DNA of 64,000 nucleotides from Carcharhinus amblyrhynchos (Eukaryota). Position 1 is the stretch's first letter. Every line of letters begins with the position of its first letter. The stretch covers positions 82,460,001 through 82,524,000 of the forward strand of contig OZ336876.1 of the NCBI GenBank assembly GCA_965287045.1, given 5' to 3'. The position numbers and the translations under genes are program-made. Below, piece after piece: positions 15,880 to 62,270 of the stretch. The notes beneath the pieces are model-generated. The model made no database searches, was not told the origin of the DNA, and saw nothing but the letters and a program-made list of their open reading frames with translations.

Positions 15880-17210
15880 AGAACACGACAGCATAGAAAC
15901 AGGCCTTTTGGCCCTCCTTGGCTGTGCTGAACCACTTTTCTGCCTAGTTCCACTGACCTGCATCTGGACCATATCCCTCCACACCCCTCTCATGCATGTA
16001 CCTGTCCAAGTTTTCTTTAACTAAAAAAAAATGAGCCTGCATTTACACTTCATCTGACAGCTCATTCCACACTCCCACCACTCTGTGAACTCCCCCCCCG
16101 CCCCCTGCCAATATTCCCTTTAAACTTTTCCCCCTTCAACCTTAACCCATGTCCTCTAGTTTTTTTCTCCCCTAGCCTCAGTGGAAAAAGCCCGCTTGCA
16201 TTCTCTCTATCTACACCCATCATAATTTTATACACCTCTATCAAATCTCCCCTCATTCTTCTACACTCCAGGGAATAAAGTCCTAACCTATTCAACCTTT
16301 CTCTGTAACTCAGTTTCTCAAGTCCCAGCAACATCCTTGTAAACCTTCTCTGCACTCTTTCAACCTTATTAATATCCTTCCTGTAATTCAGTGACCAAAA
16401 CTGCAAACAATACTCTAAATTCAGCCTCACCAGTGTCTTATACAACCTCACCATAACATCCCAACTCTTGTACTCAATACTTTGATTTATAAAGGCCAAT
16501 GTTCCAAAAGCACTCTGACCCTATCTACCTGTGACACCACTTTTAGGGGATTATGTATCTGTATTCCCAGATCCCTCAGTTCTACTGCACTCTTCAGCAT
16601 CCTACCATTTTACCTTGTATGTTCTACCTTGCTTTGTCTTTCCAAAGTGCAATACCTCATACTTATCTGCATAAAACTCCATCTGCCAATTTTCAACCCA
16701 TTTTTCTAGCAGGTCCAAATCCCTCTGCAAGCTTTGAAAACCTTCCTCGCTGTCCACTCCACCTTCAATCTTTGTACCATCAGCAAATTTGCTGATCCAA
16801 TTTACCACATTATCATCCAGATAACTGACATAATGACAAACAACAATGGACCCAACACTGACCCCTGTGCACACCACTAGTCACAGGCCTCCGCTCAGAA
16901 GCAATCCTTCTCTATCACTCTCTGGCTTCTTCCATTTGAAAAAATCTGACAACACCAGGTTTTAGTCCAACCGATTATTTGATAGTAACTATCAAATAAA
17001 TCATTTACTATCAAATAAATCGGTTGGACTAAAACCTGGTGTTGTCAGACTTTTTACTGTGTTTACCCCAGTCCAACGCCGGCACATTCACATCATTCTT
17101 CCATTGATCCAATGTCTAATCCAATTTACTACCTCCATGTATACCTAGCAACTGAACCTTCCTAACTAACCTTCCATGCAGGACCTTGTCAAAGACTTTA
17201 CTGAAGTAGT
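15880..17210 (-). mobile_element. CR1 LINE ORF2 3' portion, with nested PLE mini-insertion
   Basis: ORFs 16062-16499 (LYKTLVRLNLEYCLQFWS..RMRGDLIEVYK), 16602-16877 (SKFADGTK) and FSKVFDKVLHGRL. Confidence 0.92.
16937..17095. mobile_element. PLE mini-insertion, head-to-head hairpin plus 3' tail
   Basis: ~50-bp inverted arms (aaatctgacaacaccaggttttagtccaaccgatt../..aatcggttggactaaaacctggtgttgtcagacttttt); 10-bp TSD ttcttccatt at 16927-16936 and 17096-17105. Confidence 0.88.
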
Positions 17211-17214
17211 ATAG

Positions 17215-17650
17215 TGTCCAGTTCTTGTCACCAGACGTGCAAAGTTTGAGAGTCCTTAATAGGATGGAAAGAGGAGATTTAGCAGAATGTAACAAAAAAT
17301 ACCCCACCCCGGCACCAAAGTTAGGGTGCAGAAGTTGGAGTTGTTCTCCCTGGATCAAAGGAGGTTGAGGGAAGATTTGATAGATGTATCAACTAATCTT
17401 GTGTATATAATTTCTGTTGGGCATTAGGGCAAGGCATGAAGGGGTGGTAATAACCTTGAATCCAGTGCTTATGAGTGGTGGAAACAGAGTGAATGATTTC
17501 AAAAGGAAATTGGGTAGGCACTTGAGGGAAGTAAACTAGCAGGGCTACGAGAATGAAGTTTGAGAATGGGACTGCCTTGATTGCTCTGCAAAGAGCTGGC
17601 ATGGACTCTGGACTGAATGGCCTCCCTCTGCCATTTTGACTGATTCTAGG
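17215..17650 (+). mobile_element. Old CR1 3' fragment
   Basis: Degenerate VQFWSP..RRLREDLIDVY and a 3' UTR ending ctgaatggcctccctctg..tgattct. Confidence 0.7.
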
Positions 17651-17825
17651 CACTATTCGAAACTAGGAAAAGCAAATGCATGAGCAGTTTGTAAAAGTGA
17701 CTGCTGCGTGAAGTAAGACAAGTGACGCAATTCAAATCTCTATGTAGGCAACAGTAGGAGATTGGAATGTTTGCCTGTTGGCTGTGCTTTGACAATGTTA
17801 AAAACATCTTTTTTCTGCAACACAG

Positions 17826-17933
17826 GATGTTCCTCAGAACTTTTACCAGTAACAGCAGACCAACTGTGACAAAGAGTACTGTTTCACCTGATGGATTGTT
17901 TCTTGATTATATAAGCATGCAATAGATTTCAAG
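17826..17933 (+). other. Candidate non-coding or terminal exon (108 nt)
   Basis: Acceptor ttttttctgcaacacAG and donor AAG|gttggt in unique sequence; stops in all three frames. Confidence 0.3.
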
Positions 17934-18096
17934 GTTGGTTGTTCGTTTTAAAGTGAGAGAACTACAGAACACAGACAACAGTATTTCCAAATGGAGCAAT
18001 TGTTAGTCTTGCATTAAGCATTTTTAAAATTGAATCATGAAGCCAATTAGACAATTCACATTGTTGTCATGTAAATGCAACAATGTGTGAAAGAGG

Positions 18097-18460
18097 AAGG
18101 TGATGGCCTAGTGATATTGTTGTTAGACTATTGATCCAGAAACACAGCTAATGTTCTGAGAACCTGGATTTAAATTCCACCACGGCAGATGGGATTTGAA
18201 TTGGATTAATTCCAGATTTTTTTTCAATCTACCAAGACCATGAAACCATTGCTGATTGTCAGGAAAAACCCATCTGGTTCACTAATTTATTAAGGCAAGG
18301 ACGGAAATCTGCTGTCCTCAGCTACTTCTGACTCCATTGCCACAGCAATGTGGTTGACTCTCAATGCCCTCTGAAATGGCTTAGCAAGACATTCGGTTTC
18401 AAGTTGAGCAATAAACGTTGGTCAGCCAGCAACACCCATGTCCCACGAACAAATTTTAAA
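18097..18460 (+). mobile_element. SINE sharing a 3' end with family-B LINE
   Basis: tRNA-like head (gtgatggcctagtg..ggatttaaattcc), body aaaacccatctggttcactaat..ggaaatctgc..gcaatgtggttgactct, and tail aataaa..cagccagcaacacccatgtccc resembling the LINE 3' end near 6490-6540 on the minus strand. Confidence 0.7.
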
Positions 18461-19039
18461 AAGGGGCATGAGATGAGGCCGAGTAGATAAGTGTTTCTGT
18501 GACTATTCCTGGTCAGCTAACCAGTGGCGTAACTTCAGGGATCGTGCAAACCATAGAAAAGTTACAGCACAGAAGGAGGCCACGTGGCCTATCTTGTTCA
18601 TGCCAGCCTGAGGACACCCAGGTGCCCTTTGTAATCTTTCTTTCCTGCCCATAACCCTGTAGGGCTTTCAGTAGAGGAAAGCAGCTGGAGTAGAAATGCA
18701 CTACACCTGTAAAAACAATCAACCAATGACAAATTGCTATTTTGGGCAAAAATGCAATTATTTCTTATGTAAATGAGGGCTGATAGACAGTCAGCAACTC
18801 CTGGAAGAATTAGAGAGGTGGAGGAGAACTTGGATGCATTCAACAGCATCCAAAAGTTGGAGAGAGGAGGACCTGGAGACAGCATGATCTGAGCAATCCA
18901 ATCCAGTTTGGCTCTTGTACTGATAGAGAAAAATTGAAGAACGATTTCATAGGAAACAAGTGGTTGATATTTGCTTGTTTAACTTCTATGTAATTTATTT
19001 GTAATATTAGGTTTGCCAACAGTCATGAGAAAAATTTAA

Positions 19040-19590
19040 CATAATAAAGATGACAGGGCAAGTAACATGAAGTGACTGCAGAATTTGGGAGCTATTGGAT
19101 GCAGCTGTGATCCACAACACACACATCTGTAGCACTGTATATGGCTTGATGAGCTTCAGCTCAATGAACAGGAGACTGAACTGCGGACTCTGATGCATCA
19201 GAGGGGCAAAGTTACTGGACGCTTTGTACCAGGAGGCAGTCACAACCCCTATGATAGGATTGTTGGATTTTGGTCAATGATCAGGAACAGGAGGATGAGT
19301 CTAAGTGAGGTGAGGCAGGTATGGGGATCCAGAAGGTAGAAATGGTGAAGCCTCAGCTTTGCAATTGTCCAACAGATTTAAAATGTGTTTGTAATCTGCA
19401 TGGATAAAAATGGGGCATCAGGATGGATCAGTGAACTGATTATAACAGCTTGGTGCAGGCAGTGGGGGGCATAAATAGAAATGTAGTGGTAATTGGAGAC
19501 CATATAGCTGGTCGGATAGACATGGCTTTCTGTGGCTGAAAGTGTGAATCCAGAACGCTGTGTCGCCTACCTGGTGCCAGGACTTGGGTC
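19040..19590 (+). mobile_element. Decayed CR1 ORF1 remnant
   Basis: Degenerate ELRTL..LDALYQEAVT..LSNRF..VVVIGD..YLPGAR, the layout of the CR1 ORF1 coiled coil and GDS esterase start. Confidence 0.65.
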
Positions 19591-19689
19591 ATCTGCAGCA
19601 CCTCTCCCTGTCACTCCTCAGCTGGGTGGGACTACTCTTGCCTTTTTTCATTCTTACCTAATCATAGCCAGAGTATATTTTATACAGTA

Positions 19690-20372
19690 CAGTATACAGT
19701 TAATGGCAGAATCCTTGAGTAGAGGGATCTGGGTGTACAGGTACACAGATCAAAAGTGGCAACACAGGTGGAGAAGGTAGTCAAGAAGGCATATGGCATG
19801 CTTGCCTTCATTGGTCAGGGTACTGAGTTTGCAATATGGCTTGCCGATTTTTAGCTTTATAGAACCTTAGTTAGGCCACGCTTGGAATATAGTGTTCAAT
19901 TCTGGTTGCCATACTACCAGAAGGATGTGGAGGCTTTGGAGAGGGTACTGAAAAGATTTACTAGGATGTTGCCTGGTATGGAGGGCATTAGTGATGAGAG
20001 ATTGGAGAAACTCTGGAACAGCAGAGGCTGAGGGGTGACCTGATAGAAATCTACAAGATTGAGGGACATGGACAGAATGGATAGTCGAAGCTTATTCCCA
20101 GGGTGGAAGAGTCAATTACTAGGGGGCATAGGGACAAGATTTAAAGGAGATATACGAGGTAAGTTTTCTACAGAGGGTGGTGGGTGCTTGGAACTCGCTG
20201 CCAGGGAGATAGTGGTAGCAGATATGATAGTGTGTTTAAGGGGCACCTTGACAAATACATGAAAAGGATGGGAATGGCAGGGATACGGTCCCCAGAAGGG
20301 TAGGGGATTTTAATTAATGCATAGTTGGTGTAGGAGTGGAGGGCCGAAGACCTGTTCCTGTGCTGAAATTTT
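19690..20372 (+). mobile_element. CR1 LINE 3' fragment
   Basis: VVKKAYGMLAFIG..LVRPRLEYSVQFWLPYYQKDVEALERV; same subfamily as 45025-45985 and 62300-62970. Confidence 0.9.
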
Positions 20373-20389
20373 TAGTTTTATATGCTGCT

Positions 20390-23300
20390 GTTGCCTTTCG
20401 AGCGAGTGGTTGCAGATTTGGAGGGTGCTGCCTAAGGAACCTTGAGTTCCTGCAATGCATCCTCTAGGTAATGTACATGGTTGCCATTGTTCATTAGTCA
20501 TGGAGGGATTGCCTGTTTGTGGAAAAGGTAGCAATCAAGCTGGCTGCTTTTGTCTTGAATGGCATTGAGCTTCTTGAGGGTTGTTGGAACTGCAGTCATC
20601 CAGACAAGCGGAGAGTATTCCATTACACTGCTGACTTGCTCCTTACAGATTGTGGACAGTTTTGGGGAGTTGGGAGGTGAATCAGTCACCATAAGATTCC
20701 TAATCTTTGACCAGCTCTGGTAACCACTGCATTTATGTGGCAAGTCCAGCTCAGTTTCTGGTTGATGGTAATTTCGAGGAGGATGATTGTGGAGGATTAA
20801 GTGATGGTAATGCCATTGAATGTCAAAGGGTGATGGTTAGATCCTCATGTCAGATGGTAGTTATCTGGCACTACTAGGGTGCAAATGTTACTTGTCAGTC
20901 CGAGCCTGAATATCATCCAGGTCTTGGCTATATTTGGATATGGACTGCTTCAGTATCTAGGAGTGTCAAATGGTGCTAAACATTGTGTAATCACTTGCAA
21001 ATATTCCACTTCTGATCTTATGTTGGAAGGAAGATCATTGAAGCAGCTGAAGACAGTTGAGCCTAGGGCACTCCCTTGAACATTTGCAGTGATGTCATGG
21101 AACTGAAATGATTAACCCCAAACCATCACAACAATCTTCCTTTGTGCCAGGTATGATTTTAGTGTCTCTTTAAGAAAGGTTTTTTTAAAAATCATGCTCA
21201 CAGCCTTGGTGGGAGGAGAAAAAGTATGCTGGTCAGGTGACAGGGGTTTTTAGTTTTGTTTTGACTGCAGTGTTAGAAGCATTGCTGAAAGAAGTCTTTT
21301 TTTTAAGTTTTACCAACTAGCTGAAAGCACAATTTGCTGTCCTGCAGTAAAGAATCTGTTTTGGTTTTGAGGAGCTGACGACTACGAGGTGGAGGTTTTC
21401 AAGATCATTTGAAATCAACTTTCAACCTAGGGTACTGGATTCCAGCATCATGTGAGCTTTAGCTTGTGCAGTGATAAATCTATTGAAGAGTTTTGTTTAT
21501 TAAATGTTGGTTTTGATTGGTTAAGAGTTATACATTATTGTGACAATGTTGTTTTCACTTGTAATTGATAAAAGTTCTTGTTAATTTTCTTACTATACAT
21601 GTTAACTATATTCTTTGATAGAAGCTCTCTCGTGGGTTACTTGAATTATACCTGAAATGAAACATTTCCTGCCTATCCTAGCCAAATACAAGATGCAAAA
21701 CTTGTAGTTCAGGTAAGTTTCATGAAACACTTCTTTGTAGTTTCTGACCTATACCATAACACAGATATGACTTCAACCAGCAAAGGGTTTTCCCCCGATT
21801 CCCATCAACTCCTGCTTTGCTGTGATTCTTGTTGCAATACTGGGTCAAATGCTACCTTTGTTGTCAAATTAAGTCACTCCCATCTCACCTTTTGACATTC
21901 AGATCTTTTCTTGATATTTGAACCAAGGCTATAATGAGGTCAGGAGCTGAATGACCCTAGCAGAACCCAAACTGAGCATTCATAAGCAGGTTATTGCAAG
22001 CTTGACAAGACTGTTGGTGACCCCCTCCATCACTTGCTGATGGAGAATAGACTGATGGAGCGCTAATTGCCTGGGTTGGATTTGTCCTGTTTCTTGTATG
22101 CAGGACATACCTGGCAATTTTCCACTTTGCCAGGTAGATACCAGTATTGTAGCTGTATTGGAACTGGTTGTCTGAACTTAAAATGGTGAAGATGTGGACA
22201 GAGTAAATTTTGTTTGTTTGTTACAAGTTCTTAGGCAGTCATCAGCCTCTGCAAACTCGGAACTTCGAATTGATCTTGGAGACAAAACCCATCTTCACAT
22301 TGGAGTATATCCTCCACTGTGTTGTGTAGCACAAACAGTGTGCTAAATGGAGAGACTTCCAGGTCTAACAACTCAAGACTGGGCAACCATGAAGTGTTGT
22401 GGGCCATTAGCAACAGCAGAAATGTATTCAACCACAATCTGCAGCCACATGGTCTGACATATCCCCTACTCTGCCATGACCACCAAGCTAGGGAAGCAAC
22501 CCTGGTTCAAATAAGAGTGCAGGAGGGCATACCAGGAGCAACACCAAGTATATCTAAAAATGAGGCGTTAACCTGAAGCTACAGCACAAGACTACTTGAG
22601 TGCCAGACAGTATAAGCAGCAAGTAATAGAGAGCTAAGAGCTTACAAACTAATAGCTTGGCTTGGGGCATGGCAAGTTTTGGAGTGCAAGTCTTCAGTAC
22701 TATTGTCAGAGTCCAAAACTTTTGCAGAATCCAGTTTTTTTAGCCATTTCTCAATAGTGCGTGGAGTGAATTGGATTTGGCTAAAGACAAACACTGGAGA
22801 TGCTGGGGACCTCTGGAGGAAGCCCACTTGGTGCTTCTGGCTGAAGTTTGTTGCTAATGCTTTAGCCTTGCCTTTTTCACAGATGTATTGGACTCCTGCA
22901 TCATTAAGTAGATAGATTCTTGTGGAGTCTCCAGTGAGTTGTTTAGTTGTTCACCACCATTCATGGCTGGATGTGGCAAAGCTTAGATTTCAGCTATTAG
23001 TTTGGAATCTCTTAGCTCTCTCTATTACTTGCTGCTTATACTGTTTGGCACTCAAGTAGTCTTGTGCTGTAGCTTCAGGTTAACGCCTCATTTTTAGATA
23101 TACTTGGTGTTGCTCCTGGTATGCCCTCCTGCACTCTTATTTGAACCAGGGTTGCTTCCCTAGCTTGGTGGTCATGGCAGAGTAGGGGATATGTCAGACC
23201 ATGTGGCTGCAGATTGTGGTTGAATACATTTCTGCTGTTGCTAATGGCCCACAACACTTCATGGTTGCCCAGTCTTGAGTTGTTAGACCTGGAAGTCTCT

Positions 23301-23390
23301 CCATTTAGCACACTGTTTGTGCTACACAACACAGTGGAGGATATACTCCAATGTGAAGATGGGTTTTGTCTCCAAGATCAATTCGAAGTT
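20390..23390 (-). mobile_element. Family-B CR1/L2-like LINE, interrupted by an LTR-like insert and an inverted duplication
   Basis: Peptides QVSSVMEYSPLVW and IEKWLKKLDSAKVLDSDN; homologous to 6480-8690 and 38070-39380. Confidence 0.75.
21157..21763 (+). mobile_element. LTR-like insert
   Basis: Starts near tgtctctttaagaaag and ends ..cataaca; flanked by the imperfect repeat ggtatga/gatatga, across which the host LINE is collinear. Confidence 0.55.
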
Positions 23391-23488: not shown

Positions 23489-25159
23489 AGTGTTGAGATG
23501 TGATAGAATATGTGAACAGTAACTGGGTCCAAACCATTTTATGCTATATAGATTGAACAAGCTATCATTGCATAATTATTTGTATTTGTTGAAACACATA
23601 TTAAGCTGGTGCATAGTTTGTCTCCTTTCACCCTTACTCCTTGAGTAAAGATGAGATCTAAAAGATAACAACTTAATTGGTGACATAGTGCTGGAACCTT
23701 TTCTGTATGGTCACGTGCCCTGAGGATGAGAGATTGTGTTGGTTGGCTATGCTATAATTTTACTCAAGCTGGTGTCCTTAGTGTGGACCACCTGCAGAGT
23801 TCCATCAGTGTACTAGTGGGTGCAAGGCTCATTATGTAAGTGCTGGAGGTACCTCCGTGTCCATTAGTGTAGGAGGCCTGTGCTGTGGGCTAGATGATTG
23901 GGGTGTTGTGGTATCTGTTCATGCTGGTTCTGATACCTGTAATAGGTGACCGCAGTTTATAATTGGCACTCTAAGGCTACTGCACAACTATTAGTCTGTG
24001 GGGCAAGGCTATCTATTACTGCCAACTTATCATGGTCACATGTTCTAGATCCTGGCTATTTTCCTAGGTGTTAAAGGGGCTGAGTCTATAGGTATTGTGA
24101 TCATAATATGTTTTGCTTCTTAGCATTCCATGAGGATGCCATTCACATTGGTTTCGGGTTTTGGCAGTCAGAATTGTGGTCCTGGTGTCCCTAGAAAAGA
24201 GTCATTGTGCTGCCTTGGCAGATTTTTGCAGGCCATGAAGTACAGCATCTGTGCAATTCTGGCATATTTCTCTGAAGATGCTTAGCTGAATCTGCCCATT
24301 CCACCAGGCTGTTGGTTTGTGGGTACAAGGGGCTATTCATGACGTGCTCAAAGTCCCATTTGTGTGAGAAGTTTTGAAATTCAGTAGGGACAAATTGGTG
24401 AGAGTTGTCTGAGGGGTGCAGTGTGTGGTGAGGTGTAACTTTTTTTATTGCTGACTGTTACTCAATCATATGTGGTAAGTAGTTGAGATCAAACCACCTG
24501 GAATATGAGCTAAGACCAAATGTTTATCATTCCATTTAAAAATGTCAGCTTCTGTGAATGACCATAAGTGGCTTGGGACTTCATACACATGCAGTGGTTC
24601 TTTCACTTGATGCAGCTTGACTGCATTGCGTTGTGCATATCTGGAAACTTCCTTCTTCTTGTCAGCTTGTGTGGAGGGCCAGTATATTGATTCCTTGGCA
24701 CTGTATCTGGCTGCTTCCATCTCAAGGTGCAGTACCTCTAAAGGTAAGTAGAAATGATGAATTGCTCGCTGAGAGTTCTTGTCATGAAGACCACTCTGCA
24801 GTGCTCTTGTCAGCAGTATTAGATGTCCTGGTGCAGGCACTGAAGTCCAGTGATTTCACCACAATGAAGTTAGAAAGATAGTTTGCCCTTCCAAAGGAGT
24901 GTTGTAAAGCATGCTTGCCCACCAGATGGCCGTCGGTCACATGGTGGTTGTTATGTCTAGATCTGGCTTTGTATCACCAACTGAGAGTAAGTCACCTACA
25001 TAAGGAACCTTATTCACTCTACATTTTGCAGAGTTTTCAGCTGCATGATCCTGATTCTGTCGAACATACATAAGGTGTATCATGTTTTTGCACAGTATGA
25101 CCCCAAACCAAGATGTCATTTAGCAATGATTTTGCATGGCCTGCACAGGGTTGTTTCAT

Positions 25160-25737
25160 TAAGAACATAAGAACATAAGAACATAAGAAATAGGAGCAGG
25201 AGTAGGCCATCTAGCCCTTCGAGCCTGCCCCGCCATTCAATAAGATCATGGCTGATCTGTTGTGGCTCAGTTCCACTTTCCCGCCCTCTCCCCATAACCC
25301 TTAATCCCCTCTCTTATCAAGAACCCATCAACCCGCTTCTTAAAAATATTTAGCGAGGCAGCCTCCACCACTTCAACGGGCAGAGAATTCCAGAGATTCA
25401 CCACCCTTTGAGTGAAGAAGTTCCTCCTCAACTCCGTTCTAAACTGCCTCCCCTTTATCTTGAGGCTGTGCCCCCTAGTCCTACTGTCTTTTTTGAGCGG
25501 GAAGAGTCTCTCCACCTCTATCCTATCCATCCCATTCATCATCTTATATGTCTCAATGAGATCTCCCCTCATTCTTCTAAACTCTAACGAGTACAAGCCT
25601 AGTTTATTCAGCCTCTCCTCATAGCTCAATCCCCTCAACTCCGGTATCAGCCTAGTAAACCTCCTCTGCACTCCCTCCAGGGCCAAAATATCCTTGCGCA
25701 GGTGCGGCGCCCAAAACTGCACACAGTACTCCAGCAG
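25160..25737 (-). mobile_element. Young CR1, 5'-truncated, inside Gypsy RT
   Basis: ORF 25267-25722 is near-identical to the 9742-10230 region; tail (taagaaca)x3; no TSD visible. Confidence 0.95.
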
Positions 25738-25811
25738 CGAAGTCTTCTAGCAGTGCGAGATCCTCATGGCGCACACAAAGAAAATGATATCTGCTTACTG
25801 GAGACACGCAT

Positions 25812-26520: not shown

Positions 26521-26654
26521 CGCATGGTAAGTTTTTGAGGGTTCTTCACCTAATGGGATCCTTCAGAACCCACATTTTTGCATAAAGGATGGTGAAAGTA
26601 TTAGCATTTGGCATGTCAGCTATCACCTGTTCCACTGTCTCCATAAAGTGATGA

Positions 26655-26801
26655 GATCAAAGATAGGAGAGGGGATTAAGGGTTATGGGGAGAGGGCGGG
26701 AAAGTGGAACTGAGCAGTGACAGATCAGCCATGATCTTATTGAATGGCGGGGCAGGCTCGAAGGGCTGGATGGCCTACTCCTGCTCCTATTTCTTATGTT
26801 C
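26655..26801 (+). mobile_element. Young CR1, extreme 3' end only
   Basis: Reverse complement of 9655-9795; ends ttcttatgttc; interrupts Gypsy RT. Confidence 0.93.
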
Positions 26802-26903
26802 ACTCTGCTCAAATGCACTAGATTAATGCATTTCCTGACTCTGCCATTTTTCTTCACTGCGGACACCATTGTTGAAACTCATCCTCTGGTTTCATTTATG
26901 TTG

Positions 26904-27042
26904 TAAAAAGTCTGACAACACCAGGTTTTAGTCCAACCTATTTATTTGATAATATACTCACTAGCTTTCGGGGTTACCCCCTTCGTCAGGTGTTGTCAGA
27001 CTTTTTACTGTGTTTACGCCAGTCCAACGCCGGCATACCCAC
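26904..27042. mobile_element. PLE mini-insertion with inverted arm carrying a hammerhead core
   Basis: 13-bp TSD ttcatttatgttg (26891-26903, 27043-27055); inverted repeat taaaaagtctgacaacacc/ggtgttgtcagacttttta; 3' tail. Confidence 0.9.
26958..26992 (-). ncRNA. Minimal hammerhead ribozyme core (PLE-type)
   Basis: Minus strand reads CAC-CUGACGA-AGGGGG-UAA-CCCC-GAAA-GCUAGUG: conserved CUGANGA and GAAA boxes flanking a GC stem II, with a short self-complementary segment in place of stem III. The 5' strand of helix I is truncated by the junction. Confidence 0.72.
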
Positions 27043-28019
27043 TTCATTTATGTTGGCCATGATATCTAGTGTCATCATCTGATGCAGCTCATTGACTGAC
27101 TACTTTCTGCCTCATGACTGTTGATGCTCTTCTTTGAGCACAAAAAATGTTGATAGCACCGAGTCACCTAGTTTCATGCCATTGTGGTGGTATTTGTAGT
27201 TTCCCAATGAAGTCATAATTGCATTCTATCATTTCTGGGGCCTGTTGTTACACAGCATGCATTTCTGACCAAGTTGGATGAGCCCCAATGTAATGCTGTC
27301 CCAAAGACCTAGTAATGCTCGTGCATTCTCAACAAGTGTATAAAACTTGAAATGACCCTGTGTGCTGTGCGCAGTGGCCACAACTTCCGTGTGGATGGTT
27401 TGTCCACCATAAGCCACAATGTCTGTCTGAGGGCTGGGTTCTGGTACTGCACATGTTTCTAATTCTTGTAACTTACAACTGTTTACGACTTTGCTCAACT
27501 GTCAATGTTTATTTTCAGTCTTGCTGCAAATCATGTTCAGGATTGTGAAAATCTCCCCCTTTTTCTGTGATGTTGACACTCTCTCAATATTGTTGTTTTG
27601 AGGCTCAGCAATTTGGTTACTTTAGCTGAGCTCCAATATGTTTACCTTGTTGATGGTCCCAACCTTGGAGGACTGACCTAGCTACAATGTGGCTTGTTGC
27701 AAAGGAAGGATGCAAAGGTTTCAATGTGCAGCATTTTGTGAAATGATTCCACTTGCCACATATTGGCATCACTTACCATGTGCCAAACATGCGGTTCTGG
27801 TGTGATGGCTACCACATTTGGGATAGTGCCTGAACTGCAAAAACTTGTTTCCTGCCTAAAGTAAGTTTAGAAAGGTGTAAGCTTTACCTTTTTTTCCAAG
27901 TTGTCAAATAATACAGCAATGCAGTAAATGTGACACTCTTTCTCACCTTTGTCCAACCATAATATTTTGTTGAAAAAGAAGCAGGTTGATGCGGCAAAAC
28001 TCTTGTGTACCTATTGTCA

Positions 28020-34345: not shown

Positions 34346-34347
<2 letters not shown>

Positions 34348-36400: not shown

Positions 36401-37559
36401 AAACTTGTTTATACTTGCTCTGTGTGCATCCACCTATAGTTACTTTCAATACTGTTTACCAGCTTGCATCCCTGTAATATAGCTTCTGAATCACGTTGCT
36501 TTTAAGTATTTTTTTTAAATAAGGCTCGATCTTAACTCGGCCCCTGAGGGATAATCTTGAGCTACATCCAATCCTCTATCTTGTTGTTCAGAACTGGACA
36601 CGACCTGACAAGTGGTTTTGTTAGTATTTCAATTTCTAATTCTACTGGGTCAATTTCTGTTAAACCTTGGACCTTAGATTGAAATATACCAAGAATAATT
36701 GTGTTAATCACGAGTAGTTAGCAGCTTGTTTTCCCCTATTTAATGCAATTTGTTTTGACAGAACTATGATACTGACTCCAAATAAATTTTAGCTGTCTGC
36801 CTATATTTAAGCAATAGGCATATTTATGCTTACTTCACTCTAGTGGTGGTGCCAATTTTGTCACGAAGATGTTTTACTGCCTGCTGTTTATAGCATGGTG
36901 ACGTACTTGATTATTACCATATTGAAACAGTGGCAGGTTTTTTTGTTACTGTCAGAATTTGAATTACAAGCCATAATATCTATAGTGTGTTCTTTTGACT
37001 AAATTGCAAAGTTGAAATAGTAATTTAAAGACTAGTGGAAATTTTCGGGTTGAGGTTTGTACCAAAGCCAAGAAGAGCCTCTTGAAAACTTTTAAGTACA
37101 ACTATGCTACACAAGTGAGCCAATTATTTTATTGTATGGTTTAACTTTTAGCATGCAACTTCAAGATGTATGTAGTCACTTGGGTTTAATCACTTGGGTA
37201 AAAACTTTCAAATAATGTTACTCAAAATGTAAGGAATAGTTTTTAATTACCATTTTGCTAAAATACACTAAAACATCCAAGACCCAGAAATTATATGGAA
37301 AGAGGTATTGGGATTGGTCCATTATGTTGGAAGTTGAGTGGAAATAGAAAGAAAGCTAGCCTCTTTCATATCAAAAATTGCTAAACCAACTCTTTATGCG
37401 TGCTATGAGCTTGACCATGATCGGACTACTTACCTCATTGCTGTAGACCACCTCAGAGAGTTCTTGACATGATACATATATTTGGGCATCATTGTTCTTG
37501 TCTGTCACTTCAAATTTCAAATTGTCTAAAGTTCTGGGTGAAATGTGCTGTGAAGGGGA

Positions 37560-37934
37560 ATGGCCAGGACCAAACAGCTCGCAAGTCCACCGGAGGCGAA
37601 GCCCCCCCGCAAGCAGCGCCCTGGTGACCAGCGACGTGAAGAATCCTCACGCCCCTGCACTGTAGCCCTGCGGAAGATCTGCCGCTACCAGAAGTCCACT
37701 GAGCTGTTGATTCGCAAACTGACTTTTCAGTGCCTGGTGCGGGAGATGGCCCAGAATTTCAAGAATAACTTGTGCTTCCAGAGGTCAGCCATCATAGCCT
37801 TGCAGGAGGCCAGTGAGGCTTACCTGGTGGGGCTCTTAAAGGACACCAACCTGTGCGCCATTCACGCCAAGCGGGTCACCACCATGCTGAAGGACGTTCA
37901 CCTGGCCTGCTGCATCCGTGGGGAGCATGCCTGA
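37560..37934 (+). pseudogene. H3: Histone H3 pseudogene (isolated; canonical H3.2-like ancestry)
   Basis: MARTKQ start; [53 protein letters not shown]. Frameshifts and a deletion in the N-terminal tail, many CpG-type substitutions (R>C, R>H), no intron, no 3' stem-loop. Confidence 0.95.
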
Positions 37935-46626: not shown

Positions 46627-46914
46627 TGTCTCTATGGCTCCCTACTGAGTTATCCAAATCATTAGTAATTCCAAAAGGATAGCTGAGACCATGAAGGCAC
46701 TCGAAGGAGACTATACGAACAGACTCGAGACAATTGTGGTATGTCTATAGAAGTGGAAGGGATTGAGGGATACAGAGAAATGATAGTAGTAAAAGGACAT
46801 AACTTGTTGATTGTAACAGCTTTTCCTTGTTTAAAATTTCTGATTTTGTATGTTCTACTTTGAGACCTTTTTTTAAAGAATTGTCCTTTTGTGTAATTGC
46901 TAATTGACTAGATT

Positions 46915-47260
46915 TGCAGTCACTGAAGTACTTTTTTTGGAAAGGGCTATTATCATCGTAATGAAGGCACCTGGCAACTGACGTGCACAGCAAGATGTCA
47001 CAAATAATCAGATCTGTTTTAGTAATATTTCTGAGGGACAAATATTGGCTAGGACACTGGAAAGAATTCTTTAGTTCTTGAAAAAATGGCACCATGGGAC
47101 CAAAGTCTTGGTTCACCATCTTATCTGAAAGACAGTGTGACAGACATGCAGCACTCCCTCAGTTTGGCTCTGAAGCTTCATTCTGGATTGTTAACTCCCT
47201 GGAGTAGGCTGGAACCACAACTTTTTGACTTGAAAGTGAAAGTACAACTACTAAGCAACA
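46915..47260 (-). mobile_element. Deu-type SINE
   Basis: tgaagtacttt..gcacagcaagat..gagggacaaatattggctaggacac..ccatggga..tgaaagac..tgcagcactccctcag core, with tRNA-like head at right. Confidence 0.75.
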
Positions 47261-51600: not shown

Positions 51601-52442
51601 TAATTCTATATAATTACTTAAACCAGTAAGCAAGAATGATTGTACTAATTGCTTCCTGCTTTTACTCACTAAAATGCTCCATTTTAATACAAAAAAATTA
51701 AATTTGTTTGACATGCACCTGAAGTGTAACTCCAGTTGATACAACACTGGGGTGGGTATACATTCGGAAGATATGGATGCAAATTGAAATTACTGCCTCC
51801 TTGAAGCTTACTTAGCAGGAGGAGATCGCTTATGGGAAATGGGAGACCAGGAGCTGAGCAACATGGTTGGAGCCCAAAATAAATGTCAGTGAACAGGTTA
51901 TCATTAAACAAGTGCTGCTTGATGGCACTGTTGATGACTCCTTCCATCACTTTACTGATGGTAGGAAGTGGACTGATTGGACATTAATTGGTCAGGTTGG
52001 ACTTGTCCAGGGTATATCCAGGACATGAGTAAGCAATTTTCCATATCGCCAGGTAGAAGCAATGTTATATTGGAACAGCTCGGCTAGGGGGCACGACAAG
52101 TTCTGGAGCTCAAGTCTTCAACATTTTGTGAATATTGTCAGCATCCATCAGCTGTTTCTTGATTATCATTTGAAATTAATTGAATTGGCTGAAGACTGGC
52201 ATTTGTAATACTGGAGACCTCCAGAGGATGCTGAAATCATTTAGTTTGCATGTCTGTCTGAAAGTTGTTGCAGATGCTTTTGTGCTAGTGAGCTGGGCTC
52301 TCCCTCATTGAGGTTGGGAATATTTATGAAACCTTCTCCAGTGAGTTGCTTAATCATTTTAAATTAGGACCCTCTTTATTCTGCGACTGCCCCTGGTCCT
52401 ACATTCTTCCATAAGTGGAAACATCCTTGGAGCATTTACTCT

Positions 52443-53899
52443 GGAAGTGCCGGAAGATTGGAAAACGGCTAATGTTACACCGTTGTTTAAGAAGGGTGGC
52501 AGGCAAAAGGCAGGGAATTATAGGCTGGTTAGTTTAACGTCTGTCGTAGGTAAAATGTTAGAATCCATCATCAAGGAGGAAATAGCGAGGCATCTTGAGG
52601 GGAATTGCTTGATAGAGCAGACGCAGCACGGTTTCGTTAAAGGGAAGTCGTGTCTGACAAATTTACTGGAGTTCTATGAGGATGTGTCTAGGGCGGTGGA
52701 TAGAGGAGAGCCGGTGGATGTGGTCTGTCTTGATTTTCAGAAGGTGTTTGACAAGGTACCTCACGAGGTTATTGCAGAAGGTAAGGGGACATGGAGTTGG
52801 GGGTAGGGTGTTAGCGTGGATAGAGGACTGGTTGTCAAATAGGAGGCAGAGAGTGGGGGTTAATGGGTGCTATTCGGATTGGCGGATGGTGACTAGTGGA
52901 GTGCCCCAGGGGTCGGTGCTGGGGCCTCAGCTATTTACCATTTATATAGATGATCTGGAGGAGGGAACCGAGTGTATGGTGTCGAAATTTGCTGACGACA
53001 CCAAGATTGGTGGAACGGCAAATTGCGCGGAGGGTGTGGAGAGTCTGCAGAAGGATCTAGATAGGCTGGGTGAATGGGCCAGGAACTGGCAAATGGAATT
53101 TAATGTTGGCAAGTACGAGGTGGTCCACTTCGGTAGGAATAATGGTAGGAAGGACTATTACTTGCGGGGCGAAAAACTGCAGCAGGCGACGGTGCAGAGG
53201 GACCTTGGGGTCCTTGTGCATGAGTCGCAAAAACCCAGCCTGCAGTTGCAGCAGGTGGTCAGGAAGGCTAATGGGATGCTGGCCTTCATAGCGAGGGGGA
53301 TTGAATATAAAAGTAGGGAGGTCTTGCTGCGGCTGTAGGCCGCCGCTGGACTACTGTGTGTAGTTTTGGTTGCCGCACTTGCGCGAGGATATTTTGGCCT
53401 TGGAGGGAGTGCAGAGGAGGTTTACTAGGCTGATGCTGGAGTTGAGGGGGTTGAGCTATGAGGAGAGGCTGAATAAACTAGGCTTGTACTCGTTAGAGTT
53501 TAGAAGAATGAGGGGAGATCTCATTGAGACATATAAGATGATGAATGGGATGGATAGGATAGAGGTGGAGAGACTCTTCCCGCTCAGAAAGGACAGTAGG
53601 ACTAGGGGGCACAGCCTCAAGATAAAGGGGGGGCGGTTTAGAACGGAGTTGAGGAAGAACTTCTTCACTCAAAGAGTGGTGAATCTCTGGAATTCTCTGC
53701 CTGTTGAAGTGGTGGAGGCTGCCTCGCTAAATATTTTTAAGACGTGGGTTGATGGGTTTTTGATAAGCGAGGGGATTAAGGGTTATTGGGAGAGGGTGGG
53801 AATGTGGAACTGAGCCACGACAGATCAGCCGTGATCATCTTGAATGGTGGGGCAGGCTCGAAGGGCTGGATGGCCTACTCCTGCTCCCATTTCTTATGT
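52443..53899 (+). mobile_element. Young CR1, 5'-truncated RT to 3' end
   Basis: ORFs 52447-52806, 52676-53338 and 53370-53813 are near-identical to 9742-11160; two small deletions break the frame; tail ttcttatgt. Confidence 0.97.
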
Positions 53900-54547: not shown

Positions 54548-54591
54548 TAAAAAGTCTGACAACACCAGGTTTTAGTCCAACCTATTTATTT
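54548..54591 (-). mobile_element. 44-bp PLE mini-insertion
   Basis: taaaaagtctgacaacaccaggttttagtccaacctatttattt is identical to 26904-26947; 7-bp TSD gacgctg (54541-54547, 54592-54598). Confidence 0.9.
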
Positions 54592-56576
54592 GACGCTGCC
54601 AGCTCAGTGCTACTGAGCCAGTCTTGGTGAAGGACATTGGGATCCTCCACTTTGATTTCTGTGCCCTTTCCACCTTCAGTGCTTCCACCAAGTGATTTTC
54701 AACATGAAGTACTGATTTATGGATGCTTGCCCATGTTTAATCTGATGCCATGAGACTTCATGGAGTCCATTGGCAGTGTTGAGAAATCCCAGGCCACTCC
54801 CTCCTGACTATATGGGAACCTCCAAAGGATACTGAGATCATCCACTCTGCATTTCTGACTGAAAATTGCTGCCATTTTTTCTGGCTCTATCATATTGGTG
54901 GGATGGTGGTGCCTGAGATATTATCTGTAAGATATGCTTCTGCCAGCATTTGTGTTGCTACATTTGGACAATTGACAGTGACTTTTAATGCCATTTTTTA
55001 TTGAATTCAAGTTTCACAATCTGCCCTGGTAGGATTCAACTTAGTCCAAAGACAATACCACTACTACATCACCTTTTTTAGAATGCCATCTTTTGTGTCA
55101 GAATGTAAGTGATTGAATTGACTATGCTAAATCAAGTAGAAAGTGTATAACCATAGAAGAATAGTTGTTTTGTATATTTTGTATTATATTTGTACAATAC
55201 TAACAATCATCTGCAAACAACTTGATCTAAAAAAAACTTTTGCCAAATGTTTGTAATGAGAAATTCTGAAAGCAATTGTTTAGCTTTGAATCTTTACACA
55301 GTACAAAACATTACCATAAACTTTGCAATTGTCATTATTCACCAGATGCCAGTTATGTATTGTGCTCCTTTCCGTTGTGCTGAAATTTCCCCAATTACGT
55401 ACTACGCAACAGAGCAATCTTTACAAGTGCTCAGACTTCCTCGATCCAATTCCAGAAATATCACCAATGTTCTTCAGTCCTTAATCTTTCAAATGAAAAT
55501 ATAAAAGAAAATTCCATCCCATCCTTGTCACCATCTATTGTGCATTATGTCCACAGCAAGCAGTCATTTTTAAAGAACTTTATTTACACCTTCCCAATGA
55601 CAAAAGATGACATAATGCTCAAATCATGCAGTATACTACACGGGTAGTATCAGCACAGATAACTAACTACTTCTGCAAGCAAAAAATGAAACTTGTCATT
55701 TGAAAAATGTTTTTTGACATAGTGTCACAACTGTGCTTTTAGCTTGGATTCCTAGAGTGAACATTGCGTGAAAGCAGAAGCTAATTACTTTGCAAAATCT
55801 CCTTTCCTTAAAAATCAGCTTTATAGTTTAAGACACAAATAATCCACAAGGATACAGTTCTCAAACTTCTAATTTAGAACAAATTTAAAACTTAAAATCC
55901 AGGGCATCACTCCTAAATTGTTTAAATGTTTTAATTTTGAAATTGTATGCAATCTAATTGAATAAGAGTCTGAGAGTAGATGAGAATATACAAGACATGG
56001 ATGAAATGCACTTTTCTACTTGAAATGTTCATTTTTGTTTGAAACCCTCTCTATAGTTGTGCAGACTGGTGAATATCTAATGGTTTAGATCATATTGGTA
56101 CTGAAATAAGGGCCAGTTATTAAGGGGAGCATAATAGCCTTTTATTCATGATATGCATGCATTCCTCTCACATGGAAGCACTGGGTAAAAATAGGGGCAC
56201 CCCTCTCCCTTTATTGTGGCTTTCTTCCTCCCTTGCTGAGAACATGTTTTATCACGCGCCATCAATAACTTCAAGCTGGAAAACTTTCAGAGGGACTGTT
56301 GGCTTGTCTCCACCTAAAAGGGGCCATTTGTACTTTGGCTATTTAAATGCTGATTTGAGATGGTCTAGTGCCATTTGCCAGAATTGTTGCGAGTGTACTT
56401 GGTTCTTTTGTGTCAATGAAATCCAAAAGCCATACTAAAAAAAAGTCTGTTAGAACATTTTCAGGTGCAGCAGACAATGATATAAGAAAATAGGCTTGTT
56501 TCATCTCCTATATACTGTAATCATTTAATTTGCCACCAAGCACAACCATATGGTATTGGGAACAGAATAGTCACAC

Positions 56577-58979
56577 TGTTACTTGCCTGCATGCATTGTA
56601 ATGAAATGGTGCACAGCAGAGCAAGAGTTAACTTAGGACCGGAAAACCACACCTCCCAAAGTATGATGCAGAGCATCACAAGCGTCTGGAGAGAGAACAT
56701 TCTAGAACCAGACTTTAATCACCATGCATGAGCAAACCTTAACTATAAAAATACCAATGAAAGGTTCATGTTTAAACATTCATGACTCAAAATCTCCTGA
56801 CTGAGACATCTAAAGAACCCTTATTGCAACATCTTTAGACCTTCTAAAAGATAACCAAATCAGCAGTAGTACCATAGAGCATTAATCAGCCATGATAAAG
56901 AAGATATTTTAACTGATGAAATGAAAACCACATCCCAAGAATGAACAACCAAAGCTGAACTTGAGATGCATACCTAAGAACCATTGCAAGACCCTAATAT
57001 GATACAGCTGAGCAAAGCTACAGAAAAATTGCAAAACCTATGTCAGCATGCATAAGACAGCTAAGCAATAGTAGCTACATAGATGGCAGTCCCAAATGGC
57101 TCAGCAGATTGTAGAACCTGAATGAGTTGCAAGTTTAAAAAAAAAGTTTAAAAAAAACCCTGCAGAACAAAAGATTGGAAGAGTTAAGTTCCTGTAGAGT
57201 TACAGCCACTGAGTTCAATTTTACTGAGCATTCAAATCTTAATTTTAGAAGCTCTCTCAGCTGAAAGAAAATAGCTTCACTCTATAAGGTGAGCAGATTC
57301 CAGCTCCAATCCAGTGCAGTACAGTTGGAAGCTAGAACACTTTGAATCTTTGCTACATTTGTTGCAAAATACAACACCTACATGGCTTTTTCCAAGATCT
57401 GCCCAGTAACAAGACAAAAAAAAGCCAGCTGTATCCTAGCAACTGCAGCCCATGTTTAAAAAAGGTTACCACACTCTTAAAACATCACATTTAAAGTGTT
57501 AAATACAAGTAGCTATGAACAGAAAATTAGAGAAGCTAGATGTATTAGTGATAAGAAAATGGCTGCACCAGACACAAGTGGTCTAACATACTGAGTAAAG
57601 CACTGAGGCAACAAGAGACTCCAGAAGAAGGGAAGCCAAATAATAGAGTTCATTAGATTGGAAGGACAATTTCAAATGCCTGACCATTTAGCTCCATGAA
57701 GAAAAAGAATTTCCTAAACAGCAGCATGGAAGCTCAACAGCAGACATACTAAGTGATTTTACTGAATTGCAGGAAAGCTCAAGAGCAAGCTTCATAAAAA
57801 GAAAATCTGTTGTCAGACCTTCACACGTTACAAGAATTCCTTGGGTCAAAGGTTATTCTTCTGGAAGATTATGAAGAGCAGCAAAATGAATTTACTGTCA
57901 CACTGAACAAACTGAAGAACCAGCTGGCAAAGTGGATTCCAGGAGGATGCTTAAAACTACAAGAAACAGATTGGAGAGCTGAAGAAGCAGTTGAATGCCA
58001 AAGTGGAGAAAAGTGATAGGAAAAGCTTTTGACATTTATCTGCTTGCAGTTTGGAAATGAAACCATGAGTTGCACAGTTACAGAACTGAAACCATTTAAA
58101 ACTTGACAAGGCAGACCTGGTTAAAAGTAAAACCAAAACTAAGGGCAATGACAAAGTTCTGCTGCTGACAGAAAAAGAAGGCATATGAGCTTGGAAAATG
58201 TAAATATGACGTGCAAATTTGCAAAATGTAAATGTCCAGCAAGAATTTGGTGGGTGTCAAGGGAAAAGAAAACTTGATTTTGCACAACACTGAAGGGCCT
58301 TTTCCTGTGCTATACTGTTCTGTTTTATGTATGATTTTCACCGCCCGCCCCGCCCCCTCCCCCCCCCCCCGCCCCCCCCAAGGAACTACTGGGAGTGCAC
58401 GTTCTTCCTTGGGAGGGACAGGAGAAACTCAGTGTATGCAAAAAGACAAGTTGTTAATCAAGAGAGATGTAACTGAAGTGGAAAAAAAAATCAAATGCAG
58501 ATAGCCAAGTATCAGAAACAGTACCACTGCCATTCTTCCAAATGTGACAGATAAGAACTGTCAAGACTTCCTGAACTTCTAAAGTTAGACTTGAGATGGG
58601 GAGCATCTGCAGCGAGTAGAATTGTAATGTAATACCCCAAAGGGAGGACAGTTTCCTTGGAAAAGGAGGGGGGGGGGGGGGCAGTGGTGATGGCCTGTTA
58701 TGTGCCTGCATGCATTGTAATGCAAAGATGCTTGGCTGAGCAATGTTTAATGTGGATTACAAAATAGCCCATGGTATGATGTACAGAGTCCCATGATAAG
58801 AGTCTCTGGAGAGCGAATGGTCAAGAATAAAAATCTACAAGCAGCCTAACTACATGGAGCAGTTCTATATGATAATACCTCAACTGTAAATGGTTAAAGA
58901 CTACCAATAAAGGGTTCATGTTTTAACATTCAAGCCTCAATCTCTTCTTTAGGGCACCTAAAGATCCTATACTACGACA
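56577..58979 (+). mobile_element. Old pol-less LTR element (LTRs 56577-56831 and 58696-58979)
   Basis: Both repeats begin TGTTA..tgcctgcatgcattgtaatg, share taccaat.aa.ggttcatgttt.aacattca and ctaaaga, and end in ..ACA. Polypurine tract at 58659-58681. Internal coiled-coil-like relic (57810-58016); no RT or integrase motifs. Confidence 0.75.
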
Positions 58980-59631
58980 CCATTATACTGGAGTTCAAAA
59001 TAGTTTTCATGGAAAGATTAACTTCTGTCGCTTTTGTGTATTGTTTTCCCCTTGGTGAGGTCAGGGAAAATGAGGAACTGGAAAAGGAGCTTTCTGAAGT
59101 GTTTGCAAATAGCTGATTTGAAGGGTGACCCAGTCACTAGCCAGCTTATGATTAAGAGGCATACTGATGCCTCGCACCAATGGTACGAACTGTGTAACCA
59201 CTTCAGCCTGATTGGGTAGGATGTTGGTTTCTCAATTTGGAGCATTTTTGGAAGTTAAATGTTAACAAGTTTGTTTAATTTCATGAGTGTTACAGGAAAG
59301 AAACCTGTTAGTTCTGGCTGCTAGGTTTCAATTTTGGGCTAAAAGCAACAACCTGAATGAGTGAGTGACCTGGAGCTTATGGTTCACAATTGCAATGTCT
59401 CATTCTGCAAGCTTTGAGAAAACAAAACCGTTTCAGTTCAAAGGATCTGATGCTTGTCCAGTTTAAACTATCTTTCAAAAAGGGTTTGTTAACAATTCTA
59501 AGAAATAATTTGGTGTTGATTTGAATTTTATTAAGTATGATATTATTAGTATATTTCTGTATTTGCTTCTGTTTTTCCTATGAATAAATTGACAAAGTAA
59601 TTTTAGCTTGTGTACCTTGCACTGTTTACAG

Positions 59632-59684
59632 GTTTCCTTTTGTGCTTTTGAAGATGATTGGATAACTTAGATATCCAGAATATG
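59632..59684 (+). other. Candidate small exon (53 nt)
   Basis: Acceptor ccttgcactgtttacAG and donor ATG|gtttgt; motif evidence only. Confidence 0.25.
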
Positions 59685-60489
59685 GTTTGTCCCACCCTTT
59701 TTTTAAAAAATAAGATCACTATTCTAGCCATTGTAGATAATGTAAGTTTTGGCTCATAAGAGATTGACTTGATTGTGCAAAAATCCCTCTAATTATGGGA
59801 AAATGTTGGGGAGTGGACTGCATGGTGACCATTAACAGGATATCTGGTGCGTGAATGCTCATGGAATGGGACAGTTTTTCATTTGCTTCAGCTACCCTTA
59901 CTGGAGGGTGAATTTGGTAGGATAGTTTATGTTGGTTGGCACTTTTTTAGTTTGTGGCAGTGAGCTGCAGGGTTCTATTGATCTCTCAGTGATTTGCAAA
60001 TTGGAAAGAGATGGCAAAGGTTAGGGCAGATTGAACAACCAGTGGAAAGATTTCTAGAAACTTTGTATTTCAAGTACTTCCTGTAATTATCATCTTGCTT
60101 CATACTTTAATGTATTGGTTTTCTTCTCTCAACTGATGGCTTTCCCTGTCTTTGCGTCTTGCCAGTTGGCATTCCTTTGCGTTTGAATGTGTAAGTTGAA
60201 AGGATAGCATCTTTCGTTTAGGGATAAAAGCTAGGTTGTGAAAGGAGCATATTTCCCTCTGTTCTGCCCAGGTGAGGCACTGGTGAATCCTGGCCCTCTT
60301 CTTTTGTTAGTTAATGAGCAGGTAGTGGTGTACTGTCACTATAGAACTATATTTTCAATTTTAACATCAATCGTATTATTATGTAATCCTAAATTACTAC
60401 ATTTTTCTCTAAAGCAGATATGGGCAGTAACTTCTGAGGTCCAGGGTATTGTATTTGTGAAAGATGTCTAGGACTGTTCCCCCACCTGC

Positions 60490-62270
60490 CTATCCTGCCT
60501 TTTAAATATATTTAGTGATGGAGAATCCACAACCTTCTGGGATAGAGAATTCTAGAGATTAGCAACCCTTTCAGTGAAGTAATTTCTCTATATTTCCATT
60601 CTAAATGACCAGATTTCCCGACCAGTGGAAGCAATCACTCAGTGCTCAGCTTTATAAGAAGCCTTCAGAATTTTCATGGAATCATGTAGCACAGGAGAGG
60701 TCCTGTGGTCCATTTGAGTCCACACTGATGCATTAAAAACACCTAACACCCACCTAATTCTATCTGCCAGCACTTGGCCTGTAGCCCTGAGTGTTATGAT
60801 GTGTCAAGTGCTCATCCAGATTCTTTTTAAAAGGATGAGACAACCTGCCTCCACCACCCTCCCAGGCAGCGCATTCCAGACTGTGTCACTACTGAGTAAA
60901 AAAGTTTTTCCTCATATCCACCAGCATCCCCCCCACCCCCCCTCCCCCTCCCCCCAAACCTTCTGTCCTGCACTTTGAACTTATATCCCCTCATGACTGA
61001 CCCTTTAAGGGGAATAGCTGCTACTTATCTGCTCTGTCCATCTCTCTCAATCTTGTCTCAATCAGGTCACCCCTCAATCTTCTCTGTCCCATCAAAAACA
61101 ACTCAAACCTATCCAACCTCTCTTCGTAACTTAAATGATCCAGCCTAGGCAGCGTTCTGGTAAATCTCCTCTGCACCCCCTCCAGTGTACTCGTATCCTT
61201 CCGATTTAATGTGGCGATCAGAACTGCGCACAGTTCTTTTGCTGTGGCCTCAACATTCTATACGACTTCTCTGCTTTTGTAATCTATGACTATAAATCTA
61301 ATCTATAAATGTAATCTAGGTTGGACTAAAACCTGGTGTTGTCGGACTTTTTACTTTGTAATTTATGCCTCAGTTGATATACAGACTAAATATATGCCTT
61401 TTTCACCACCCTAGATGTCAATGAGATATGTCATTCCTCGAAACTCCAGAAAATATAAGCTCAGTTTACTCCGCTTCTCTTCCTAGGACAACTCTCATTG
61501 TGGGAACAATTTCATGGAATCTTTGCTGTACCATCTCCAATATGAGTATACCCTTTCTTGAATTTAAAGACCAAAACTGCACATCAGTGTCCCGCCAAAA
61601 GCCTGTAGAACTGTAGCAAGACTTAGTTATTCTTTATAATCACCTTTCAATAAAGTACATTTGTCATTACTAATTCCATTTTTCTTCCAAATTTGTAGCT
61701 GCACTTGCATGCTAACCTTCTGCATTCCTTATACAAGTACATCAAAGTCTCTTTGAACATCAATTCTTTAAGACTTATACTTTTTAAAAAAAAAGCTGCT
61801 TTTCTATTTTTACCACCAAAGTGAATAACTTCATATTTTCCCTACGTTATACTCCATCTGTCATCTCACCTAACCTGCTTGTTTCTCTGCAGTCTATGCT
61901 GTCCCCAAAGTTTACCTTCTGTTGTAGCTTGGTGTCAAATATCTCTTTATCCAAGTCATTAATATAAATTGCAAATAGCCATGGCTCTGACACTGATACT
62001 TGTGGCACCCCAGAAAGCACTGCCCGCCAATCCTTTTTATGTCCACTCTCTATATTCTTAACTAATCCTCTATCCATACTGATATATTGTCCCCAAATCT
62101 AAGCCCTTATTTTGCCCATTAATCTTTTATGTGGAGCCTTACTGAATACCTTTTTGTTTTTGAAAATCTAGATCTACAACATCCGCTGGTTTCCCTTTTT
62201 CTAGCATGCTAGCTACATACTCAAAAACTAATACCTTTGTCAAACACCTTTAGTAAAATTATGTTAACTT
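60490..62270 (-). mobile_element. Nested decayed CR1 fragments
   Basis: SGVPQVSVSEPWLFAIYINDLD (61847-62077); a second CR1 3' end at 60675-61410 is nested in the older copy. Confidence 0.8.
61317..61354 (+). mobile_element. 38-bp PLE mini-insertion with filler DNA
   Basis: taggttggactaaaacctggtgttgtcggactttttac; imperfect TSD ttttgtaatctatg / ctttgtaatttatg. Confidence 0.82.

Follow-up and report, generated by a model that had tools for sequence, protein, structure and literature searches.

A 64,000-nucleotide stretch of the Carcharhinus amblyrhynchos genome (assembly GCA_965287045.1, contig OZ336876.1, positions 82,460,001 to 82,524,000, forward strand; hereafter the window) carries a family of very short insertions with features of Penelope-like elements (PLEs). 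Three young insertions, I1 (16937-17095), I2 (26904-27042) and I3 (54548-54591), lie where the initial annotation of this DNA had placed them, and their perfect target-site duplications (TSDs) of 10, 13 and 7 bp were confirmed. The fourth, I4, had been under-called as 61317-61354. The whole insertion is 61289-61354, in which a 28-29-bp filler precedes a 38-bp arm and both are enclosed by a 13-bp TSD of their own, with 1 mismatch. Searches with nhmmer and blastn, using four element queries, revealed seven element arms in the window and no other fragment. I3 and I4 are single arms, I1 and I2 consist of two arms joined head to head, as initially described, and the seventh arm is an older copy. 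Each arm ends at one of two positions in the pseudo-long terminal repeat (pLTR), called here the internal site and the distal site; the sequence between them is the tail. The features are as follows (ORF, open reading frame; RT, reverse transcriptase or reverse transcription).

6050..6116, plus strand: ORF-like remnant in the old copy, 21 residues, frameshifted
6051..6468, plus strand: old 5'-truncated copy, with a candidate ORF end and about 350 nt of pLTR up to the distal site; possible weak 10-bp TSD with 1 mismatch (6036-45/6469-78), offset from the 5' end
6340..6379, plus strand: decayed minimal type-I hammerhead in the old copy, 1 core mismatch, 6-bp helix I; predicted cut after 6373
16927..16936, plus strand: left TSD of I1, 10 bp (12 bp with a 1-nt indel), right copy at 17096-17105; inside a CR1 RT-coding fragment
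16937..16988, minus strand: inverted arm of I1, reaching the internal site, with 2-3 edits at that end
16989..17003, plus strand: junction filler of I1, in which 14 nt of the arm start are repeated; with the left arm it makes a palindrome whose loop is 3 nt
17004..17095, plus strand: direct arm of I1, with a 38-nt tail (17058-17095) up to the distal site
26891..26903, plus strand: left TSD of I2, perfect 13 bp, right copy at 27043-27055
26904..26992, minus strand: inverted arm of I2, running back from the internal site and containing an intact, uncut minimal hammerhead (26959-26992) with its predicted cut at 26962
26989..27042, plus strand: direct arm of I2, with a 34-nt tail and a 4-nt microhomology (26989-92) in common with the inverted arm
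54548..54591, minus strand: I3, single tail-less arm; 7-bp TSD (54541-47/54592-98) and 2-nt microhomology at the 5' junction
61289..61316, plus strand: filler of I4, partly target-site pieces; two 8-mers match the TSD
61317..61354, plus strand: I4, single tail-less arm of 38 bp; 13-bp TSD with 1 mismatch (61276-88/61355-67); inside a CR1 fragment

Arm ends and target-site duplications

Arm ends are found at the internal site in four of the seven arms (within a span of at most 3 nt), at the distal site in three, and elsewhere in none. The four arms that reach the internal site (I1-left, I2-left, I3 and I4) all stop at the same T-run/AC position, which bears out the single shared breakpoint of the initial annotation. 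The exact base is ambiguous owing to a shared C, and I1 carries 2-3 edits there, in agreement with the earlier remark that this copy differs at that end. Four uniformly distributed ends would fall within a span of less than 3 with a probability of 1e-3 (40 possible positions) to 5e-5 (100 positions). The three distal-site arms (I1-right, I2-right and the old copy) end 38, 34 and 39 nt beyond the internal site, and this is the tail length. On the 5' side the arms stop at variable points, 20-90 nt upstream of the internal site and about 380 nt in the old copy, and the 5' junctions show 1-4-nt microhomology or filler.

Both two-armed copies carry the tail on one side only and duplicate the same stretch, as the arms overlap by 20 nt in I2 and by about 53 nt in I1. 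The tail-less arm of I2 (90 nt) extends about 70 nt further upstream than the tailed arm, which reaches 20 nt past the internal site, and the cDNA 3' ends are complementary over 4 nt. Among the young copies, the core arms show 0-1 differences in 37-48 positions. The two young tails show 4 in 53, mostly near the distal end, where the differences crowd into the final 10 nt ahead of the distal site (17075-17095, 27030-27042). The start of the I2 TSD matches the next bases of the element at 4 of 5 positions, which may reflect slippage or annealing at initiation. Young insertions occur at 62 per Mb (95% confidence interval 17-160) in this one selected window. With the small divergence of the core arms, this makes the initial view of a very abundant and recently active family plausible, on the basis of a single window. 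A further motif match at 15350-15365 was rejected as chance, since 0.7 such matches are expected and nhmmer did not extend it.

TSDs of 7-13 bp are present in all four young insertions. As a null, 3000 random position pairs were drawn at each of the four spacings with equal slack. Repeats of at least 7 bp occurred in 0.3-0.6% of the pairs, of at least 10 bp in 0-0.07%, and of at least 13 bp in none; for the I4 TSD (13 bp with 1 mismatch) the null gave 4 of 2000. Empty sites were modelled by deleting the insertion and one TSD copy. The modelled sites of I1, I3 and I4 are colinear with paralogous copies of long interspersed nuclear elements (LINEs) in the window, a comparison that stands in for a true empty allele and is not one. 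Five paralogues were found for I1, four of the five shown span the I4 site, and one, with a small gap near the junction, covers the I3 site; no paralogue in the window spans the I2 site. Furthermore, the CR1 frame runs on across the I1 site. TG stands at the target end of three internal-site junctions (TSD ends 26903, 54547 and 16938, the last with a 1-nt indel) and I4 differs, numbers too small for a preference, and no target motif is claimed at n=4. Just upstream of I3 lies an 82-bp direct duplication of 75% identity (54260-54341/54368-54449).

Hammerhead motifs and element identity

Hammerheads in the pLTRs of PLEs have an extra nucleotide after position 9, a G10.1-C11.1 pair and a palindromic helix III (PMC4209133), and PLE tails are described as 30-40 bp long, optional and often present at one end only (PMC8557442; PMC3846280; PMC2377424). 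A descriptor search of the 64 kb for minimal type-I hammerheads with these features revealed exactly two sites, one with an exact core in I2 (26959-26992, minus strand) and one with 1 mismatch in the old copy (6340-6379, plus strand). The exact core was absent from 20 composition-matched random 64-kb sequences, and no site with up to 2 core mismatches was found in 8 random sequences. An Rfam scan gave no ribozyme or other family above gathering score, hammerhead included. The old copy is about 82% identical to the young copies, both of its tail CpGs are decayed, and it continues for 352 nt after the stop codon.

Three structural features of endonuclease-bearing PLEs are thus found: a hammerhead, a tail, and an inverted 5'-truncated copy at the 5' end with a variable TSD. 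A PLE origin of the insertions, as initially proposed, is very likely, because the minimal hammerhead, the 34-39-nt tail, the head-to-head inversion and the variable TSDs occur together; this assignment does not draw on the putative GIY-YIG remnant of the old copy. No telomerase-like RT ORF was found in the window, where the RVT_1 matches among the 129 translated stretches are of CR1 type, and nhmmer and blastn found no long copy there with a pLTR-ORF-pLTR structure. A 30-residue frame across the pLTR end had three matches among 1.84 billion proteins. One of them, P0121, is 80% identical and has no domain; it probably represents a further copy of this pLTR end that was translated spuriously, and the remaining two appear to be chance matches. 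As expected, the family had no match among the bacterial and archaeal genomes searched.

Proposed reverse transcription from two sites

The two ends seen here have a close parallel in PAc (Poseidon_Ac) of the anole Anolis carolinensis. Frangieh et al. 2024 reported in vitro that two RT start sites bound the tail and that both are internal to the RNA (PMC11167929). PAc cuts both strands of the target and extends both; it is predicted to be dimeric and copies uncleaved RNA, so that ribozyme cleavage is not needed. Added 3' sequence left the main product unchanged, and the target preference is AT-rich (PMC11167929). The two-site RT start and the tail are therefore already published; the central idea of the initial annotation is known, and the mechanism is largely known. 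By analogy, a PAc-type distal end is probably an RT start rather than an RNA terminus, because both PAc sites are internal and added 3' sequence left the main product unchanged. The initial annotation had set the breakpoint about 40 nt before the true 3' end of the element and had assumed priming at an internal and a terminal position. The tail is 38, 34 and 39 nt, slightly less than 40, and two defined priming positions fit the data. What the annotation took for the "true 3' end", on the other hand, probably marks a start of RT, and its reading of one internal and one terminal site is likely to be mistaken, as both PAc sites are internal (PMC11167929).

The family resembles PAc in that a hammerhead is followed by two fixed ends one tail-length apart, the tail is optional, and uncleaved RNA is copied (PMC11167929); the inverted arm of I2 likewise crosses the predicted ribozyme cut. 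The distance from the hammerhead GAAA to the distal site is 97-102 nt here and about 86-93 nt in PAc, counted by eye on the printed template (PMC11167929). The element differs from PAc in sequence family and host, and no pLTR ORF start is shown here. Two-armed inverted products and copies of 40-160 bp are not treated in the part of the PAc paper that was available (PMC11167929). Penelope copies of Drosophila virilis and Adineta vaga show head-to-head pLTRs, a one-sided tail of 31-37 bp, TSDs of 8-10 bp, and palindromes or overlaps at the junction (PMC2377424, PMC3846280). Those copies enclose ORFs or host DNA (PMC2377424, PMC3846280), whereas here both arms are cut down to 38-92 nt.

We consider it probable that the insertions arose by target-primed reverse transcription from two fixed RNA sites and represent extremely 5'-truncated pLTR ends of a Penelope-like retrotransposon with an endonuclease. 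They would then be completed insertions with TSDs and not the abortive scars that the initial annotation saw in them. In this scheme, an endonuclease would make a staggered cut 7-13 nt apart, as the TSDs suggest, and RT would start at either of the two sites that bound the 34-39-nt tail, the ends being seen here and initiation having been observed in vitro for PAc only. Extension of one target end would give a single arm (I3, I4 and the old copy), presumably closed by microhomology or by templated-filler end joining; I3 and I4 indicate that the internal site works without a tailed partner. If both ends were extended, one from each site, the cDNAs would come together head to head with their 3' ends pairing, as the 4-nt overlap in I2 suggests, and the outcome would be an inverted pLTR with the tail on one side. 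The same 20 or 53 nt are copied twice, and therefore one RNA copied once is not enough. It would seem that each target strand was served by its own template or that one template was used repeatedly; the arms could derive from a pair of RNAs or of tandem pLTR units, or the first cDNA could have been displaced.

Several observations weigh against this proposal. No RT or GIY-YIG ORF tied to the family is found in the window, and the protein searches, including a follow-up among longer proteins, recovered no RT sequence. The initial annotation had linked the family to a GIY-YIG C-terminus through the old copy. The remnant at 6050..6116 may resemble such a PLE C-terminus, but no search confirmed the link: the 21 frameshifted residues had no Pfam match and no homologue in a word-indexed search, which is weak evidence with so short a query. 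For the RNA hairpin predicted across the two sites, stability does not exceed that of shuffled sequences (z -0.6 and -0.9), and no structural claim is made. The flanks of I3 are 53% GC, as against the AT-rich preference of PAc, and the junctions allow 1-4 nt of target-RNA matching, although initiation by PAc is reported to be homology-independent (PMC11167929). Two-armed copies number only two, and one of them, I1, is equally compatible with fold-back: its arms have private variants in common, their stop points lie no more than 1 nt apart, and a palindrome joins them.

These features of I1 argue for a PLE origin in which the inverted arm arose by self-priming or fold-back, and in which the fixed breakpoint and tail reflect endonuclease cuts resolving an intermediate rather than RT starts, a scheme proposed earlier (PMC3846280; PMC8557442). 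Nevertheless, about 70 nt in the tail-less arm of I2 are absent from its tailed arm. This arm is the longer one, and therefore fold-back cannot have made either arm from the other. Moreover, the PAc RT start sites coincide with genomic tail ends (PMC11167929), and single arms have TSDs and typical 5'-truncation junctions. We thus regard fold-back as unlikely, though to be taken seriously. The initial claim of priming on opposite target strands is needed for I2, while I1 fits fold-back self-priming too. It is more doubtful still that the template was a short non-autonomous hammerhead RNA, a retrozyme-like derivative of the pLTR served by a PLE protein in trans, which would leave the priming mechanism unchanged. 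Non-LTR (long terminal repeat) retrozymes are likewise non-coding, derived from pLTRs and equipped with a type-I hammerhead, and the chondrichthyan retrozyme consensus averages 363 bp (10.64898/2026.07.22.740005), near the 352 nt after the stop codon of the old copy. In addition, all young arms are at most 92 nt long, and both I1 arms, aligned to the old copy and I2, end a few nt short of the predicted ribozyme cut. However, the I2 arm crosses the cut site, the old copy continues into an ORF-like remnant, and the ribozyme is kept in one of the four young insertions. Tandem hammerhead-bearing units, the mark of non-LTR retrozymes, were not found in the window, which has two isolated motifs in 64 kb; arrays outside it are possible.

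L1 twin priming is similar to the proposed mechanism in that cDNA is primed from both ends of the target and a single TSD encloses an inversion, and the head-to-head arms with microhomology at the inversion junction would suit it (PMC11702581). In L1, the second primer adjoins the end of the first cDNA, with deletions or duplications of 1-10 bp (PMC11702581). Here the second site has a fixed position close to where the first cDNA begins, the overlaps between the arms are 20 and 53 nt, poly(A) is absent, and I3 and I4 use this second site by itself. No second priming adjoining the first cDNA end was seen, and ordinary twin priming on one RNA with chance internal microhomology is therefore very improbable. 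I1 and I2 also resemble short inverted-repeat elements, as if the shared motif were the terminal inverted repeat of a DNA transposon or a miniature inverted-repeat transposable element (MITE). This is hardly credible, as the 34-38-nt tail separates the repeat from the TSD, leaving the inverted repeat non-terminal on one side; furthermore, the TSDs range from 7 to 13 bp, they also flank single arms, whose 5' ends are ragged, and a hammerhead is present. Inverted repeats at both termini with a TSD of fixed length were not found.

Returning to priming at two fixed sites, a dimeric PLE protein might divide the work, one subunit priming one target strand from the distal site and its partner the other strand from the internal site, each with its own RNA or tandem unit. 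We put this forward tentatively, as somewhat short of an even chance. If true, such a division of labour would explain the inverted pLTR with one tail in one step; the genomes of sharks or rays would then contain miniature products by the tens of thousands, in which it could be counted directly. The route by which PLEs make inverted pLTRs is described as open in the accessible parts of two papers (PMC8557442, PMC11167929). In the literature searched, which reached few subscription papers, we found no explicit proposal of dual-strand priming as their source and no publication joining Penelope, twin priming, inversion and GIY-YIG; four short family motifs matched no published text. The modest addition of this window is the TSDs on tail-less single arms and the 20 or 53 nt copied twice, unlike in L1 twin priming. 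Since the miniature copies keep both junctions and the TSD within 160 bp, they are suited to telling dual priming from fold-back on a genome-wide scale. Repeat collections may already list the family, and the expectation that repeat annotation could easily miss it is doubtful, as the diverged old copy alone recovered five of the six young arms at E<0.01. The I1 inverted repeat (16941-17053) matches the Rfam model MIR5070 on both strands (59 bits, E 4e-9, gathering 100), and I1-like hairpins can be mistaken for microRNA precursors or MITEs.

Surroundings of the insertions

The window is 41% GC and rich in LINE fragments. A Pfam scan covered 129 stretches, namely 128 of the 145 open stretches of at least 75 aa and the remnant. 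It found only LINE domains, a histone H3 fragment and two sub-threshold matches. No host gene was found in these stretches, and Atlas gave nothing for 46748-47158. A young CR1-type LINE family, with copies 92-96% identical, occupies 9650-12422 (minus strand), 25174-25746, 26662-26801 and 52363-53899, with endonuclease and RT frames and short tandem-repeat 3' tails. Among the best 120 of 7371 matches to the longest CR1-type RT frame, the highest named identities are to the cartilaginous fishes Chiloscyllium (69%), Callorhinchus (68%) and Hypanus (60%), which suggests a shark, ray or chimaera as host, and the other named matches (bird, turtle, others and one Scyliorhinus protein at 54%) are 41-57% identical.

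Three further features were observed. A weak integrase-core match at 24194-24855 (minus strand; E 0.008, below cut-off) is possibly a decayed LTR-element fragment. An intronless, diverged histone H3-like frame at 37554-37934 (plus strand; Pfam Histone, E 5e-31) is probably a processed pseudogene. A 497-bp inverted repeat of 97.6% identity with a 334-bp spacer (22163-22657/22992-23488) consists of LINE-like sequence, has no clean TSD, and is possibly a recent fold-back duplication.

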